Part shown: positions 3,597 to 38,613 of the stretch, one piece after another
How positions within the stretch are numbered: position 1 is the stretch's first letter
How the letters are laid out: each line of letters begins with the position of its first letter
Origin: Oscillospiraceae bacterium
GTDB lineage: Bacteria; Bacillota; Clostridia; UBA1381; UBA9506
NCBI GenBank assembly: GCA_015068905.1
Contig: SVJQ01000005.1
Coordinates: 35,746-99,745, forward strand
Reading direction: 5' to 3'
Length of the DNA stretch: 64,000 nt
Position numbers and translations under genes: made by a program
The notes under the pieces: model-generated
What the model was told of the DNA's origin: nothing
The model's database searches: none
The model's input: the letters and a program-made list of their open reading frames with translations, nothing else

Positions 3597-4218
3597 TTTA
3601 GGATGAGACTATAAAGACTGTCGAATGTTGTCGAAATCAAAAAAGCATCCCTTGCAAAGCCCTCCTTGCCTAAAGGAGGGGGGACCGTCGTAGACGGTGG
3701 GAGGATTCAGGAGGGATACATGGAGAGAAAACATAATACAGAATTAACAAATAACGCAAGAACGTTGAGAAAGAATATGACAAGAGAGGAACGACATCTT
3801 TGGTATGATTTCTTGAAAAGGTATCCTATTAGATTTTTACGACAAAAAGTAATTGATAATTATATTGTTGATTTTTATTGTCATAGTGCGAGGTTGATAA
3901 TTGAGCTTGATGGCTCACAACATTACGAAGAAAAAGGATTACTGAAAGACAAAATCAGAACTGAAAGAATAGAACAACGAAATCTAACAATTATTCGAAT
4001 ACCTAACAATGAGGTTAACAGAAATTTTGAGGGAGTTTGTCAATATATTGATATTGCAGTAAAAGAATCCCTCCGTCAGCCTGCGGCTGACACCTCCCAT
4101 GAATCCCCCAGTCAACTTCGTTGACAGCCCCCTTTAGGCAAGGGGGCCGATGGCAAGGGTGGCTTTGATGCTTGGCATCTAGATTATACAGTCTTTATAT
4201 AAAGATTTCATCAAATAG
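3597..4218 (+). mobile_element. TIR-bounded cassette carrying a DUF559 endonuclease gene (putative mobile/selfish element)
   Basis: The left arm 3597-3716 aligns by eye with the reverse complement of the right arm 4067-4218. The arms are GC-rich hairpin arrays embedded in AT-rich intergenic DNA. Confidence 0.5.
3720..4124 (+). CDS. DUF559 domain (Vsr-like fold) endonuclease
   Basis: RKNMTREERHLWY...FLRQKVIDNYIVDFYC...IELDGSQH...D..R is typical of DUF559. ATG at 3720 is preceded by GGAGGG. The C-terminal tail is encoded by the right repeat arm. Confidence 0.85.
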   Translation: MERKHNTELTNNARTLRKNMTREERHLWYDFLKRYPIRFLRQKVIDNYIVDFYCHSARLIIELDGSQHYEEKGLLKDKIRTERIEQRNLTIIRIPNNEVNRNFEGVCQYIDIAVKESLRQPAADTSHESPSQLR

Positions 4219-4413
4219 ATGAAATCAATGAAAAGTGAATAATGAATAGTGAAGAATTAAGGAACAAATGCTCTGCATTTGAATTAAAAGAAAATCGCAT
4301 TGCGATTTTCTACCACAATTATTCATCATTCATTATTAATCATTCATTTTATAAGTGGCATCTAAATTATGAAGTTTTTATAATACAAACAAAATTAAAA
4401 AGGAGAAAAAATT

Positions 4414-31477: not shown

Positions 31478-31511
31478 TAAAAGGCTATGGCAATAAGCCA
31501 TAGCCTTTTTA
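31478..31511. terminator. bidirectional terminator between the convergent PPIase gene and sigK
   Basis: GGCTATGGC-aataa-GCCATAGCC with flanking A and T runs. Confidence 0.75.
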
Positions 31512-32207
31512 GTTTTTAAACTGTTTTTCAAGTTTTGAAAGCGCTTTTTTTTCAATACGTGAGACATAAGAACGGGATATATTCAGCTTTTTTGCAATTT
31601 CTCTTTGGGTAATAGCTTTGCCGCGAAGACCGTAGCGCAAAATAATGATTTCTTTTTCACGGTCTGTCAGGTTGTCTATGTACCGGTAAAGCTTTCTGAT
31701 ATCCATATTTAAGTCTGCCTGTTGTGCAACGTCCTCGTCTTCTGCGGTTAAAATATCCATAAAGGTAATATCGTTGCCCTCGGCATCGTGTCCCAAGCAT
31801 TCATTGATGGAAACCTCTTGATTCAGCTTTTTTGTGCTACGGATGGACATTAAAATCTCATTTTCAATGCATCTGGCAACATAGGTAGCAAGTCTTGCGT
31901 TTTTTGAAGGATCAAAGGAGTCAATCCCTTTTATCAGCCCAATGGTGCCGATAGAAATAATGTCATCTGAATCGCTACCGGGGGTTTGGGTGTATTTTTT
32001 TGCAACATGTGCAACAAGGCGCAGGTTGTGCTCAATCAGTTTGTTTTTTGCGCTTTCGTCTCCCTCTTGCATACGTTTCAGGCATTCGGCCTCCTCTTTT
32101 GCTGACAGTGGGCGAGGAAAGGTGTTTGTATTGTTTGACACATAAGAGAGTAGAAAGGGCCCTAAACGGATGAGCGAGAGGATGAATAACCAAAGCGAAG
32201 TAAACAT
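31509..32207 (-). CDS. sigK: RNA polymerase sporulation sigma factor SigK (pro-sigma-K), uninterrupted
   Basis: Hydrophobic pro-sequence then SYV.NN..FPRPLS, IEHNLRLVAHV, ISIGTIGLIKGI and ARCIENEILM, closely like B. subtilis SigK and unlike SigE/SigG. Confidence 0.85.
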   Translation of the reverse strand: MFTSLWLFILSLIRLGPFLLSYVSNNTNTFPRPLSAKEEAECLKRMQEGDESAKNKLIEHNLRLVAHVAKKYTQTPGSDSDDIISIGTIGLIKGIDSFDPSKNARLATYVARCIENEILMSIRSTKKLNQEVSINECLGHDAEGNDITFMDILTAEDEDVAQQADLNMDIRKLYRYIDNLTDREKEIIILRYGLRGKAITQREIAKKLNISRSYVSRIEKKALSKLEKQFKN

Positions 32208-32328: not shown

Positions 32329-32357
32329 TTGACAAATCCTATAAAAATTGCTATACT
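32329..32357 (+). promoter_or_regulatory. sigma-A type promoter of the tRNA-Ser pair
   Basis: TTGACA, 17 nt, TATACT, about 20 nt before the first tRNA. Confidence 0.65.
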
Positions 32358-32376: not shown

Positions 32377-32463
32377 GGAGAGGTGTCCGAGCGGTTTAAG
32401 GAGCTGGTCTTGAAAACCAGTGATGCGAGAGCACCGTGAGTTCGAATCTCACCCTCTCCGCCA
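32377..32463 (+). tRNA. tRNA-Ser (anticodon UGA), CCA encoded
   Basis: Hand-folded cloverleaf: acceptor GGAGAGG/CCTCTCC, anticodon stem CTGGT/ACCAG with loop CTTGAAA, long variable arm, T-arm GTGAG-TTCGAAT-CTCAC. Confidence 0.9.
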
Positions 32464-32500: not shown

Positions 32501-32592
32501 GGAGAAGTACTCAAGTTGGCCGAAGAGGCGCCCCTGCTAAGGGTGTAGGTCGGGAAACCGGCGCGAGAGTTCAAATCTCTCCTTCTCCGCCA
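32501..32592 (+). tRNA. tRNA-Ser (anticodon GCU), CCA encoded
   Basis: Acceptor GGAGAAG/CTTCTCC, anticodon loop CTGCTAA, long variable arm, T-arm GAGAG-TTCAAAT-CTCTC. Confidence 0.9.
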
Positions 32593-33114
32593 TAAAAAAA
32601 CAAGCACCAAAAGGTGCTTGTTTTTTTATTCTACAAAGGATTTGAACGCGAGCGCCGGGTACCGGCAAGAGAGCACCGTGCACGACCGCTGCCGGCGGCA
32701 GGGGGAGGGAGTGCTAAGGTGTGGCAGAAACCCGCTGAAAGCAAGTGGCTTTTAAGGCACGCAGATTGAAGCGTTGGTTTCAACTGTGCCGAAGGACAAA
32801 TCTCTCCTTCTCCGCCATAAAAAGCAAGCACCAAAAGGTGCTTTTTTTTTTATTCTACAAAGGATTTGAACGCGAGCGCCGGGTACCGGCAAGAGAGCAC
32901 CGTGCACGACCGCTGCCGGCGGCAGGGGGAGGGAGTGCTAAGGTGTGGCAGAAACCCGCTGAAAGCAAGTGGCTTTTAAGACACGCAGATTGAAGCGTTG
33001 GTTTCAACTGTGCCGAAGGACAAATCTCTCCTTCTCCGCCATAAAAAAGCAAGCACCAAAAGGTGCTTGTTTTTTTTATGCTACAAAGGATTTGAACTCG
33101 AGCGCCGGGTACCG
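32572..33114 (+). repeat. tandem repeat, 2.4 copies of a 224/225-bp unit beginning in the tRNA-Ser(GCU) T-loop
   Basis: Units start at 32572, 32797 and 33021 with CAAATCTCTCCTTCTCCGCCAT plus the terminator hairpin. Copies differ at only a few positions. Identity ends at 33114. Confidence 0.9.
32593..32627. terminator. terminator hairpin after tRNA-Ser(GCU); repeated at 32818-32851 and 33042-33078
   Basis: CAAGCACC-aaaa-GGTGCTTG with an A-run before and a T-run after, so it could work in both directions. Confidence 0.75.
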
Positions 33115-33145: not shown

Positions 33146-33259
33146 TTACTTTTTTCTTATATACTTTATCAGTGCAAGAGCAACTAAGGTACACATTGTC
33201 AACCCTAAAATCAAAGCTGCACCTGCGAAAACAACTGCTAATATTACCATGGCCTCCAT
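33146..33259 (-). CDS. small hydrophobic peptide, 37 aa (MEAMVILAVVFAGAALILGLTMCTLVALALIKYIRKK); below the ORF-track cutoff
   Basis: My own translation. AGGGTGG RBS 5 nt before the ATG. Perfect consensus promoter 35 nt upstream. The transcript would end at the hairpin at 33042-33078. Confidence 0.5.
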   Translation of the reverse strand: MEAMVILAVVFAGAALILGLTMCTLVALALIKYIRKK

Positions 33260-33483: not shown

Positions 33484-34320
33484 ATGAGCAAAACAAAATC
33501 TGTTTTATTAACCATTTTAGGCACTATGATTACCGGCTTTGGCATTGGCGTTTTTTTAACACCCAATAAGATTGTTGGCGGTGGCGTTTCCGGTCTTTCT
33601 ACCATACTTTTTCATGCGTTATCTATTCCGGTTGGTATAAGTTTTTTGGTTATTAACTTGCTTTTTCTGCTGATTGGATTTAAAATATTAGGTAAGAGCT
33701 TTACTTTTAAAACCCTATTGGGTGCGGCTTTGATTTCTGTGTTTACGCAGGCGTTTTCTTTTATTCCTTTTTACACTGAGAATACTATGCTTGCCACCAT
33801 TTTTGGCGGTGTGCTGTATGGCTTGGGCATCGGTCTGGGCTTTGCTGCAGGGGCATCTACCGGCGGTACGGATATCTTAGGCCGTCTTATCCAATACAAA
33901 TTCCCCACGGTACCCATTGGTAAATTGCTCTTATTTGTTGACGGCATTATTATTTTGGTGTCGCTCATCATTTTTAGAAATCTTGAACTGACCCTGTTTG
34001 GCATTATTTCTTTGTTCATTTCCAGCACGACCATTGACTTTGTCATCGGTCAGCTTAACATTTCCCGTCTTGCATTTGTGATCACAGAACACGGTGAAGA
34101 AATCTCAAGTCAGCTTGTGAGCACATCTCCCAGAGGTGTTACAATGATTGATGTTGTTGGTGCTTACACAAACGACAAGAAAAAGATGCTGTTTTGTGCG
34201 CTGAAAGAAAGCGAATCAGAGGTTTTTCAAAGAAAGATACTTGCTATTGATCCGGAAGCGTTTATTGTGTTCTCAGAATCACAGCGCATTAAGGGCAATG
34301 GTTTTTACTTATATAAATAA
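33484..34320 (+). CDS. YitT family membrane protein (DUF2179 C-terminal domain)
   Basis: [11 protein letters not shown] and GGTDILG motifs. GGAGGA RBS before the ATG at 33484. Confidence 0.8.
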
Positions 34321-35026: not shown

Positions 35027-36052
35027 TCATTGGATAAACATTGCATCACCAAAGCTGAAGAACCGATAACGTTCCTTGACAGCTTCTTCATACGCCTTTA
35101 AAATCAGCTCTCTGCCGGCCAAAGCACTCACAAGCATAACAAGTGTTGACTTGGGCAGATGGAAGTTTGTAATCAATTTATCTGTAAATTTAAAGGTATA
35201 ACCGGGATAAATGAAAATGCTGGTTTCGCCGGTTCCGGGATGCATCACGCCGTTTTCGTCAGCCAAAGTTTCTACAACACGGGTTGCGGTTGTACCAACA
35301 CAGATAACGCTTCCGCCGTTTTGCTTTACCTGATTGAGAAGAGCAGCCGTTTCTTCATTGACTGAATACACCTCTGAGTGCATGGTGTGTTCTTCCACGG
35401 TTTCTGCCTTTACAGGGCGGAAGGTGCCTAAACCAACGTGGAGTGTTACATAGGCAATGTGAACACCCATAGCCTCTAAACGGGCGAGTAAATCTTTATC
35501 AAAATGGAGCCCGGCGGTAGGTGCGGCGGCTGAACCTTCAACCTTTGAATACACCGTTTGATATCGCTCGGGGTCGTTTAATTTTTCTTTAATATAGGGG
35601 GGGAGTGGCATTTCGCCTAACTCTGCCAGAATTTCATTAAAAATACCATCATAAGAAAAACGAACAAGTCTGTTACCGTCGTCTTTGACTTTGATAATCT
35701 CGGCGGTCAACTTTCCTTCGCCGAATACGATTCTGTCACCTATGCGGCATTTTTTGCCGGGACGAACCAAGGTCTCCCATACATCATCTTCCATCTGGCG
35801 GAGAAGTAACAGCTCAGCGGCACCGCCGCTTTTTTCGCGGTGGCCGAGTAGCCTTGCCGGAATGACACGGGTGTTGTTTAACACAAGACAATCGCCGGGC
35901 TTGATGAAATCTGTTATGTCTGAAAAGACGCGGTGTGCAAGTTCTCCGGAGTTTCGGTCTACAACCAAAAGACGGGATGATGTACGGTCGGCAAGAGGGG
36001 TCTGAGCAATTAATTCTTCCGGCAGAAAGTAGTCAAAATCCTGAATGTTCAC
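35027..36052 (-). CDS. queA: S-adenosylmethionine:tRNA ribosyltransferase-isomerase
   Basis: [13 protein letters not shown]...R..SRLL, PLPPYI and TAGLHF motifs. Confidence 0.95.
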
Positions 36053-37962: not shown

Positions 37963-38613
37963 TTATTTTCTCTTCCAGTTTGTTTTAACGACCTGTCTTG
38001 CCCGGGCGATTGCCAAGGTATCGGCAGGAACGTCATCGGTGATGGTAGAACCGGCGGCTGTGAATGCGTTTTTACCCACAGTAACAGGTGCTACCAGATT
38101 TGTATTACAACCGATGAAGGCATCATCTTCAATAACGGTGCGATATTTTTTCTTGCCGTCGTAGTTAACCACAACAGTACCGCAACCAAAATTGATGCGT
38201 TCGCCTACATCAGCATCACCTACATAGGTTAAATGTGAAAGTTTTGTACCGTTTCCGATGTTGGAATTTTTAATTTCAACAAAGTCGCCCAGCTTTACAT
38301 TTTCCCCGACCTTGCAGTTAGGGCGAACATAGGTAAAAGGACCAACTGTTGTGCCTGCACCGATTTCACTATCCAAAATAACGGATTGGCGGATTTTTAC
38401 GCCGTCGCCAATGATAGAATTTTCAATTTCTGTGTTAAAACCAATACTCACGTTCTGACCAATTTCGGTCTTTCCCACAAGGTGCACGTTCGGAGCAATG
38501 GTTGTGCCAGAGCCGATGGTAACATCAGCATCAATAAAAGCACTTTCTTCGTCTGCGAAAATGACACCGTTCTGCTTATGTTTTGCAATAATTTCTGCAC
38601 GGTTTTGCGTCAT
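37963..38613 (-). CDS. stand-alone left-handed beta-helix acetyltransferase equivalent to the C-terminal (GlcN-1-P acetyltransferase) half of GlmU
   Basis: Aligns by eye to B. subtilis GlmU from about residue 225 to the end (NYDGKKKYRTVIEDDAFIGCNTNLVAPVTVG...ALAIARARQ). Own AAAGGAG RBS. No uridyltransferase domain upstream. Confidence 0.75.
   Translation of the reverse strand: MTQNRAEIIAKHKQNGVIFADEESAFIDADVTIGSGTTIAPNVHLVGKTEIGQNVSIGFNTEIENSIIGDGVKIRQSVILDSEIGAGTTVGPFTYVRPNCKVGENVKLGDFVEIKNSNIGNGTKLSHLTYVGDADVGERINFGCGTVVVNYDGKKKYRTVIEDDAFIGCNTNLVAPVTVGKNAFTAAGSTITDDVPADTLAIARARQVVKTNWKRK

Follow-up and report, generated by a model that had tools for sequence, protein, structure and literature searches.

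At the 3' end of a tRNA-Ser(GCU) gene of an uncultured Oscillospiraceae bacterium (Clostridia) from the ruminant gut (contig SVJQ01000005.1 of assembly GCA_015068905.1) lies a tandem array of gene-less 224/225-bp units. We describe this array within a stretch of 64,000 nt (positions 35,746 to 99,745 of the contig, forward strand), called the window throughout, to which all coordinates refer. The array occupies 32572–33114 and is the sole strong one found by Tandem Repeats Finder (TRF; period 224, 2.4 copies, 97% matches, score 1035). Each unit starts with the 21-mer CAAATCTCTCCTTCTCCGCCA, termed the core in the following, which equals tRNA-Ser(GCU) from base three of the T-loop up to and including CCA. 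Exact matches to it lie at 32572, 32797 and 33021 (n = 3), where shuffled sequences lead one to expect 0 copies. An earlier note on this DNA had placed three unit starts with the last 21 nt of the tRNA at these positions, and both the exact matches and TRF bear this out. The tRNA gene and the parts of the array are:

32501..32592, + strand: tRNA-Ser(GCU) gene, whose last 21 nt are the first core copy (ARAGORN; Rfam tRNA, 50.2 bits)
32572..32796, + strand: repeat unit A, 225 bp, with core 32572–32592, terminator hairpin 32601–32620, box 32639–32664 and segment E1 32665–32796 (TRF, alignment)
32797..33020, + strand: repeat unit B, 224 bp, with core 32797–32817, terminator 32826–32843, box 32863–32888 and segment E2 32889–33020
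33021..33114, + strand: partial unit C, 94 bp, with core 33021–33041, terminator 33050–33069 and box 33089–33114
32639..32664, + strand, more copies at 32863–32888 and 33089–33114: box, an inverted degenerate T arm plus variable arm of tRNA-Ser(GCU) (about tRNA positions 50–81)
32665..32796, + strand: segment E, 132 bp, non-coding, 59% GC, with the 5' end GCAAGAGAG and the 3' end GAAGGA fused to the core
32791..32810, + strand, second copy at 33015–33034: E/core junction GAAGGA-CAAATCTC-TCCTTC, a perfect 6-bp inverted repeat with an 8-nt spacer

In pairwise alignments the units are 96–98% identical, also over sequence that is not tRNA. Three substitutions and one indel distinguish unit B from unit A, and the same numbers separate A from the 94 bp of unit C, which stops at 33114 and is directly followed by the unique flank TTTAATTGC; the near-identity of A and B and the end point of C had thus been recognized correctly before. 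The natural dissection of the array is into direct repeats of 92–94 bp, each containing the 21-nt tRNA end, a bidirectional terminator and a 37-nt box, with the 132-bp segment E between them. The repeat extends 71–73 bp beyond the tRNA end and includes an inverted tRNA-derived box, so that the previous view of the 21-nt block as the direct repeat does not hold. Successive cores are separated by 203 bp and the 92–94-bp repeats by 132 bp, with no open reading frame (ORF) of note; E1 and E2 differ by a single base. The terminator has the form CAAGCACC-AAAA-GGTGCTTG with an A run and a T run on its flanks. Such a hairpin had been described as uniform after each core. It is indeed present each time, but its stem comprises 8 bp in copies A and C and 7 bp in B (GGTGCTTT). 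Likewise, the tail of about 165 bp behind it is GC-rich as stated, yet measures 169 bp (58% GC, compared with 41.5% for the window).

Extra copies of this kind could be due to short-read mis-assembly around the tRNA, a possibility which the earlier note had itself raised. About 12 contigs of the same species were recovered by exact-protein look-ups; most of them break inside the array, and copy numbers taken from short-read assemblies are uncertain. Against mis-assembly, at least 10 contigs of independent JGI, ENA and NCBI assemblies show the E/core and box/E junctions again, and internal and terminal repeats carry distinct, consistent types of single-nucleotide polymorphisms (SNPs). Since identical junctions occur across independent assemblies, we consider an artefact very improbable. 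The following alleles are the most informative:

L061 (NCBI GCA_045546115.1, a 172-kb contig spanning the locus): one E
L003: two E, with units B and C of the window reproduced base for base
L001: at least two E, with unit A and a second, different unit
L007 (Logan SRR32407012): no E, with an intact tRNA T stem, one repeat and the right flank

The window itself has two E copies. We take L007 to represent a true 0-copy allele, because it has SNPs of its own and runs without a break across the site at which a branch derived from E would join. Thus, the array is real and the copy number of E differs among strains (0, 1 and at least 2, that is 2 or possibly 3), as the comparison of strains suggested by the earlier note was meant to reveal. 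Within one JGI sample (3300032167) the E copies of two contigs, L001 and L004, differ from each other (CGGCGGC/CGGTGGC, CTAAGG/CTACGG, AAGGCAC/AAGACAC), which implies at least three units in one strain or several co-existing strains.

The phase of the SNPs tells where these alleles recombined. All flank-adjacent repeats (8 contigs) possess the variants ATGC and GAACTCGAG, which are diagnostic also of unit C, and all repeats preceding an E (5 cases) possess ATTC and GAACGCGAG. L007 has one repeat only, and it matches the tRNA-adjacent repeat of L061 at every base; what sets the 1-copy allele apart from the 0-copy allele is the segment GCAAGAGAG...GGGTACCG. The box/E junction GGGTACCG|GCAAGAGAG already exists within the array. 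Given the identity of the repeats of L007 and L061, the crossover that separates these alleles falls into the final 16 bp of the repeat and not into the T-loop, where it had been assumed. For the internal repeat of the 2-copy allele, a crossover must lie within the initial ~60 bp of the repeat. Crossovers at different positions fit homologous recombination at arbitrary points, not a single fixed crossover in the T-loop. Furthermore, as L007 lacks E, this segment cannot be derived by duplicating the 0-copy allele's own sequence, and simple tandem duplication from a single-copy allele was rejected for the same reason.

To what extent does the core behave as an attachment (att) core of mobile elements? 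A scan of IMG/VR found the 21-mer in 27 contigs: 13 with whole tRNA-Ser genes, 11 with partial copies from the anticodon stem onward and three (L083, L087 and L095) with partial copies beginning near the T-loop. In these three, the partial tRNA-Ser(GCU) starts 2–6 nt before the repeat start of the window, the 21-nt core is identical, a hairpin terminator follows right after CCA, and a PF00589 tyrosine integrase is located 50–375 bp away. The core is therefore a genuine att core, as had been surmised, and these contigs show that elements which bring along a terminator and the tRNA 3' end starting at the T-loop do exist for precisely this tRNA, tRNA-Ser(GCU). None of the three contains E or the box. 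A blastn search with the unit against phages and plasmids, exact and degenerate scans of IMG/VR for E, box and the L037-type E, and a search of metagenome contigs and GTDB genomes for an E 21-mer all gave nothing. Phages, plasmids, IMG/VR, GTDB representatives and the metagenome collection, none of which includes this species, thus yielded no parent element bearing E or box.

Near the array itself there is no integrase: up to 10 kb on each side the Pfam tags are those of housekeeping genes, Pfam finds none at 41–62 kb, where the ORFs are housekeeping or polysaccharide synthesis genes, and the ORFs at 0–21 kb look housekeeping-like by eye. The window was also negative in tblastn with three T-loop-type integrases, as were the loci of relatives, which agrees with the earlier statement that no integrase is present. 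A decayed integrase C-terminus in E or box was rejected on the tblastn result. No integrative and conjugative element (ICE) or integrative and mobilizable element (IME) adjoins the array in the window or L061, nor is there one within about 30 kb on either side.

Related loci in GTDB all stem from metagenome-assembled genomes (MAGs) of uncultured ruminant or gut Clostridia (Ructibacterium, Oscillospiraceae, Candidatus Aphodoplasma, Fumia). In the closest sister species (L009, L010, L011 and L013; YitT 86–92% identical) the tRNAs are identical and followed by a terminator and yitT only, the latter 60–130 bp downstream of the tRNA, so that the whole module of box, E and duplicated core is absent. 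Sequences homologous to E occur at the same locus of more distant genomes, which represent three or four uncultured Clostridia:

L037 (YitT 69% identical): tRNA, terminator 1, box, E', second tRNA 3' end, terminator 2, box and flank, all diverged in sequence
L039: two tandem E' subunits and, beyond the duplicated core, a different terminator and a cargo of an SLH protein and an XRE regulator
L060: the terminal part of E and a degenerate core, followed by ~950 bp encoding a lipoprotein and a DUF6809 fragment, and finally box and start of E
L099: behind tRNA and terminator, a box and the initial ~25 nt of E at 86% identity to the window; a second core is absent

The only metagenome match to the box pattern was L060. 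Terminator 2 of L037 is homologous to the terminator of the window, with a compensatory change, and its terminator 1 (CGAGAA...TTCTCG), placed after the intact tRNA, resembles the native terminator of the sister species. These comparisons show a module with a patchy distribution that is in every case linked to tRNA-Ser(GCU) and has had time to diverge strongly. Box and E were found nowhere else in the 64-kb window or in ~700 kb of relatives' DNA. This confinement to one locus makes the module site-specific, and dispersed miniature repeats, such as miniature inverted-repeat transposable elements (MITEs) or repetitive extragenic palindromes and the mosaic elements built from them (REP/BIME-like), were rejected.

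Several further details of these loci deserve mention. The last partial unit ends at the same box nucleotide in the window (33114/33115, GGGTACCG|) and in L037 (8959/8960, AGGAACTG|), with unrelated flanks. A second recombination-prone point is suggested within the variable-arm-like palindrome GCCGG-GTA-CCGGC. A "Box1-box2 deletion" model for a terminal copy ending at the box was set aside as speculative; L060, which has no box after its core, gives it no support. In L060 (JAEIGA011264284.1, minus strand) an 11-nt perfect inverted repeat, AAAAGACACAC ... GTGTGTCTTTT, surrounds the ~950 bp of cargo. It is located where the window has the terminator hairpin, and the arrangement has the appearance of a hairpin whose loop has received genes. 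Similar GACACC/GGTGTC terminators stand after the tRNA in L099 and after the last box in L037. Downstream of yitT, glycine riboswitch aptamers (52–53 bits) are present in L037 (12346–12432) and L039 (5838–5924). L037 also has a YesL neighbour; a search for more extended sequence around it and around the cargo of L060 led to short contigs only and brought up the L099 locus.

We give an even chance to the reading that the array is the scar of site-specific recombination, namely a set of gene-less, att-flanked remnants of integrative elements at tRNA-Ser(GCU), like the micro cis-mobilizable elements (microCIMEs) discussed below. An element with a T-loop-type tyrosine integrase would have brought its own tRNA 3' end, from T-loop to CCA, together with a terminator. 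After integration all genes would have been lost, leaving ~200 bp of arm sequence (terminator, box and E) between duplicated tRNA ends, and the flanking repeats would have become 92–94 bp long and nearly identical. Homologous recombination between these long repeats would then let the array grow and shrink between 0, 1, 2 or possibly 3 copies; a cognate integrase acting in trans could equally change the copy number. We infer that E was formerly an attP arm, that the integrase made the first duplication and that later copy changes were of RecA type. With an origin as remnants, the tRNA 3' end and terminator in every unit would be regenerated as a by-product, with no function in the cell needed. 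Several observations support the reading as remnants. The left end of the repeat falls in the T-loop, close to the point from which the partial tRNA copies beside integrases extend in the three viral contigs with the identical core; box and E are confined to this one locus; gene-less att-flanked elements of similar size are documented elsewhere; inverted repeats surround a 7–8-nt spacer at the E/core junction in the window and in L060 (there GGAGA-CCAAATC-TCTCC), a geometry which resembles that of a recombinase core site; copy number is polymorphic within the species and distribution patchy among species, with differing cargo in L039 and L060; and E has neither coding potential nor an internal promoter nor an Rfam match.

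A number of points weigh against such an origin. The 92–94-bp repeat is far longer than an att identity block needs to be, and the first two bases of the T-loop (TT) are not conserved at the E/core junctions. According to the SNP phase, a T-loop crossover could not interconvert the 0- and 1-copy alleles. The order of terminators in L037 is opposite to the one that simple T-loop integration would predict. L099, having box and E start without a second core, indicates that part of the module may be old resident sequence. Compensatory hairpin changes in E, seen between species and between the subunits of L039, hint at a structural constraint which would be unexpected in a dead scar. There is no adjacent ICE or IME, and as the searches turned up no parent element, the descent of the array from an integrative element is something we infer.

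The composition of box and E brings in a different explanation, which manages without a mobile element. Direct and inverted tRNA fragments may have been joined locally by template switching or illegitimate recombination at tRNA hairpins, the resulting segment then being amplified in tandem by unequal homologous recombination or slippage. The box, which spans GATTTGAAC..GAGCGCCGGGTACCG, is an inverted copy of the T arm plus variable arm: a repeat search pairs 15 of 18 positions between 32560–32577 and 32639–32656, and its local alignment to the reverse-complemented tRNA (score 25) was matched by 0 of 200 shuffles, the copy in L060 behaving likewise. Together with the box end, GCAAGAGAG mimics the end of the variable arm plus the 5' strand of the T-stem in direct orientation (p ~0.005–0.015 in L037 and L060). 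A purine tract within E is an inverted degenerate copy of the core:

32694..32711, + strand, second copy at 32918–32935: purine tract GGCGGCAGGGGGAGGGAG, complementary to the downstream core CUCUCCUUCUCCGCC including G-U pairs (minimum free energy (MFE) fold)

The box and E start of L099 without core duplication, the 96–98% identity of the repeats to the host copy over non-tRNA sequence, an SNP phase compatible with crossovers anywhere along the repeat and the lack of any integrase or parent element also fit a patchwork. On the other hand, tRNA-like pieces other than the box are individually non-significant in alignments against shuffles (p 0.1–0.5), and E, being underivable from the 0-copy allele by duplication, came from elsewhere or was lost there. 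The left boundary coincides with the start of integrase-associated partial tRNA copies, different cargo genes stand behind the duplicated cores of L039 and L060, and sister species lack the whole module. Taken together, we regard a purely local patchwork as the main rival and as rather unlikely. The earlier note had left the choice between att-bounded remnants and a locally amplified tRNA-derived module; both options stand, and probably both are partly true. A decayed whole tRNA in E, on either strand, was rejected, as ARAGORN and the tRNA covariance model find none.

The surroundings of the array comprise the following features, with one small ORF on the right:

31509–32207, minus strand: pro-sigma-K-like sigma factor gene (sigK), left neighbour of the array
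32329..32357, + strand: sigma-70-type promoter of the tRNA-Ser(UGA)/tRNA-Ser(GCU) operon, TTGACA-17-TATACT, 11/12 matches, with TG extension
32377..32463, + strand: tRNA-Ser(UGA) (ARAGORN; Rfam tRNA, 58.8 bits)
33146..33259, minus strand: hydrophobic small ORF of 37 aa in the right flank, a gene call in 8 independent contigs
33484–34320: yitT, right neighbour of the array

The 37-aa ORF is strongly hydrophobic, ends in KYIRKK, has a perfect promoter (TTGACA-17-TATAAT, 33329–33301, minus strand) and is terminated by the bidirectional hairpin which it has in common with unit C. It has no homologue besides itself and no Pfam family, and may be cargo of a decayed element. The layout of ORF, promoter and shared terminator is, we presume, reminiscent of a type I toxin.

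This neighbour bears on a third explanation, by which every unit would encode a small structured RNA making use of the tRNA 3' end and the terminator that are regenerated there; the array would then be a gene-dosage polymorphism. The candidates are a tRNA-like RNA, an antisense RNA directed at the last third of tRNA-Ser(GCU) and an RNA that would act in the manner of an antitoxin on the convergent 37-aa ORF, whose transcript runs towards the shared terminator. The + strand of the unit folds with z = -4.7 (MFE). Purine tract and core are predicted to form a helix of 15 bp, which is strand-specific since it needs three G-U pairs, and which is partly retained in L037 (7/10 pairs in the consensus fold). 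Box and purine tract are complementary to tRNA-Ser positions ~58–91. E, with 59% GC, stands out from a genome of 41.5% GC, and hairpins change in a compensated manner both between species (CTGCC/GGCAG vs CCGCC/GGCGG) and fully so between the subunits of L039 (GAGCC-GACA-GGCTC vs GGTGC-GACA-GCACC). However, E contains no plausible ORF, neither E nor the unit as a whole has an internal promoter, and a strong terminator lies upstream of every E. Rfam 15, searched on both strands at E-values up to 10 with the array of the window and the L037, L039, L060 and L099 regions, returned only tRNAs and terminator look-alikes, with no family matched in four species. Pairing registers at the E/core junction vary between species, and no convincing common fold exists for window, L061 and L037 (unfavourable covariation term of +1.23; 2 of 43 pairs change on both sides); the homologues are too few for a covariation test. 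Templated mutation can keep palindromes perfect, the E-less strain L007 retains the small ORF, and the module is missing from the sister species. A small RNA gene is therefore, in our view, clearly improbable.

A little more doubtful still is the idea that terminator, box, E and tRNA 3' end together constitute a conserved tRNA-Ser-derived structured module, acting as RNA or single-stranded DNA, with the strain-variable dosage following either way. It could be an RNA which mimics the last third of tRNA-Ser(GCU) or base-pairs with it, or a self-contained miniature element which homes to the T arm by means of its tRNA-derived hairpins. Other classes were discarded: an integron cassette array (attC), because no integrase was found and the box on reading lacks the R''/R' consensus (RYYYAAC...GTTRRRY), and T-boxes, IS200/IS605-type ends and single-strand origins, which lack defining motifs or partner genes.

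Two further observations come from elsewhere in the window. A 152-aa ORF (3666–4124, + strand), which from its translation has by eye the look of a DUF559/Vsr-like endonuclease domain, sits among housekeeping genes beside a 14-bp tandem repeat (4318–4348). At 37963–38613 (minus strand) a left-handed beta-helix (hexapeptide) protein of 216 aa stands alone where a full-length GlmU might be expected; in L003 it has equal length and is tagged there by Pfam as LbH/Hexapep only.

If the array is indeed the remnant of integrative elements, it offers a tidy example from uncultured gut Clostridia of how a tRNA integration hotspot decays, in which gene-less micro-remnants persist, amplify and get lost by recombination. 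For annotation, partial tRNA copies of this kind are liable to be mis-called as genes; for assembly, contigs break at such arrays and MAGs show too few of their copies. A residue that this reading does not explain, the conserved inverted box of tRNA origin and the hairpins with compensated changes, leaves a slim chance of something more interesting. The finding would gain greater weight if conserved hairpins and tRNA-complementary segments proved functional.

Known systems resemble the array to different degrees. With minisatellites such as the mycobacterial interspersed repetitive units (MIRUs) it shares its nature as an intergenic tandem array that varies among strains through recombination or slippage. 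Unlike MIRUs, it is found at a single locus at a tRNA end, its unit includes a tRNA fragment and a terminator, and the unit cannot be derived from the 0-copy allele. In tandem accretion arrays at tRNA/tmRNA genes, such as the ssrA islands of Dehalococcoides, repeated 3' ends of an RNA gene reportedly mark successive integrations at one hotspot. There, gene-carrying islands lie between the repeats, whereas the units here are near-identical, gene-less and 224 bp long.

Closer are the T-loop-class sites of tyrosine integrases, at which, as in the array, the duplicated block runs from the T-loop to CCA and the element supplies a replacement 3' end and terminator. Partial tRNA genes are well-established products of element integration (PMC9897764), with the T-loop as one class of sublocation (Williams 2002, cited there); Ms6 in tRNA-Ala (PMC1762012) and mv4 in tRNA-Ser (bioRxiv 10.1101/2023.11.06.565760) are reported examples. 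The array departs from such sites in that 203 bp and not the usual kilobases of an element separate the copies, in that the TT of the T-loop lies outside the repeat while identity reaches far beyond the tRNA, and in that no integrase is situated between or beside the repeats.

The closest parallel is provided by the microCIMEs of Streptococcus salivarius, gene-less att-flanked segments of 130–220 bp, sometimes two in tandem, which are read as deletion products keeping only the att sites and are found next to an ICE, an IME or a decayed ICE at rpmG, rpsI and fda (PMC7563491). Tandem gene-less remnants flanked by att sites, to which the earlier note had appealed, are thus a documented class. In contrast to microCIMEs, the array has no adjacent ICE or IME and no known parent element, its target is a tRNA, its repeats are 92–94 bp long with an inverted tRNA fragment, and at least one of its copy changes occurred via a crossover at the far end of the repeat. 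Like them, it lacks genes and an integrase, is bounded by direct att repeats at a conserved gene's 3' end, is arranged in tandem and falls into the same size range, with 132 bp between the repeats and 203 bp between the cores. The array is therefore best classed as a further instance of something already known, namely micro-remnants left at a tRNA integration hotspot.

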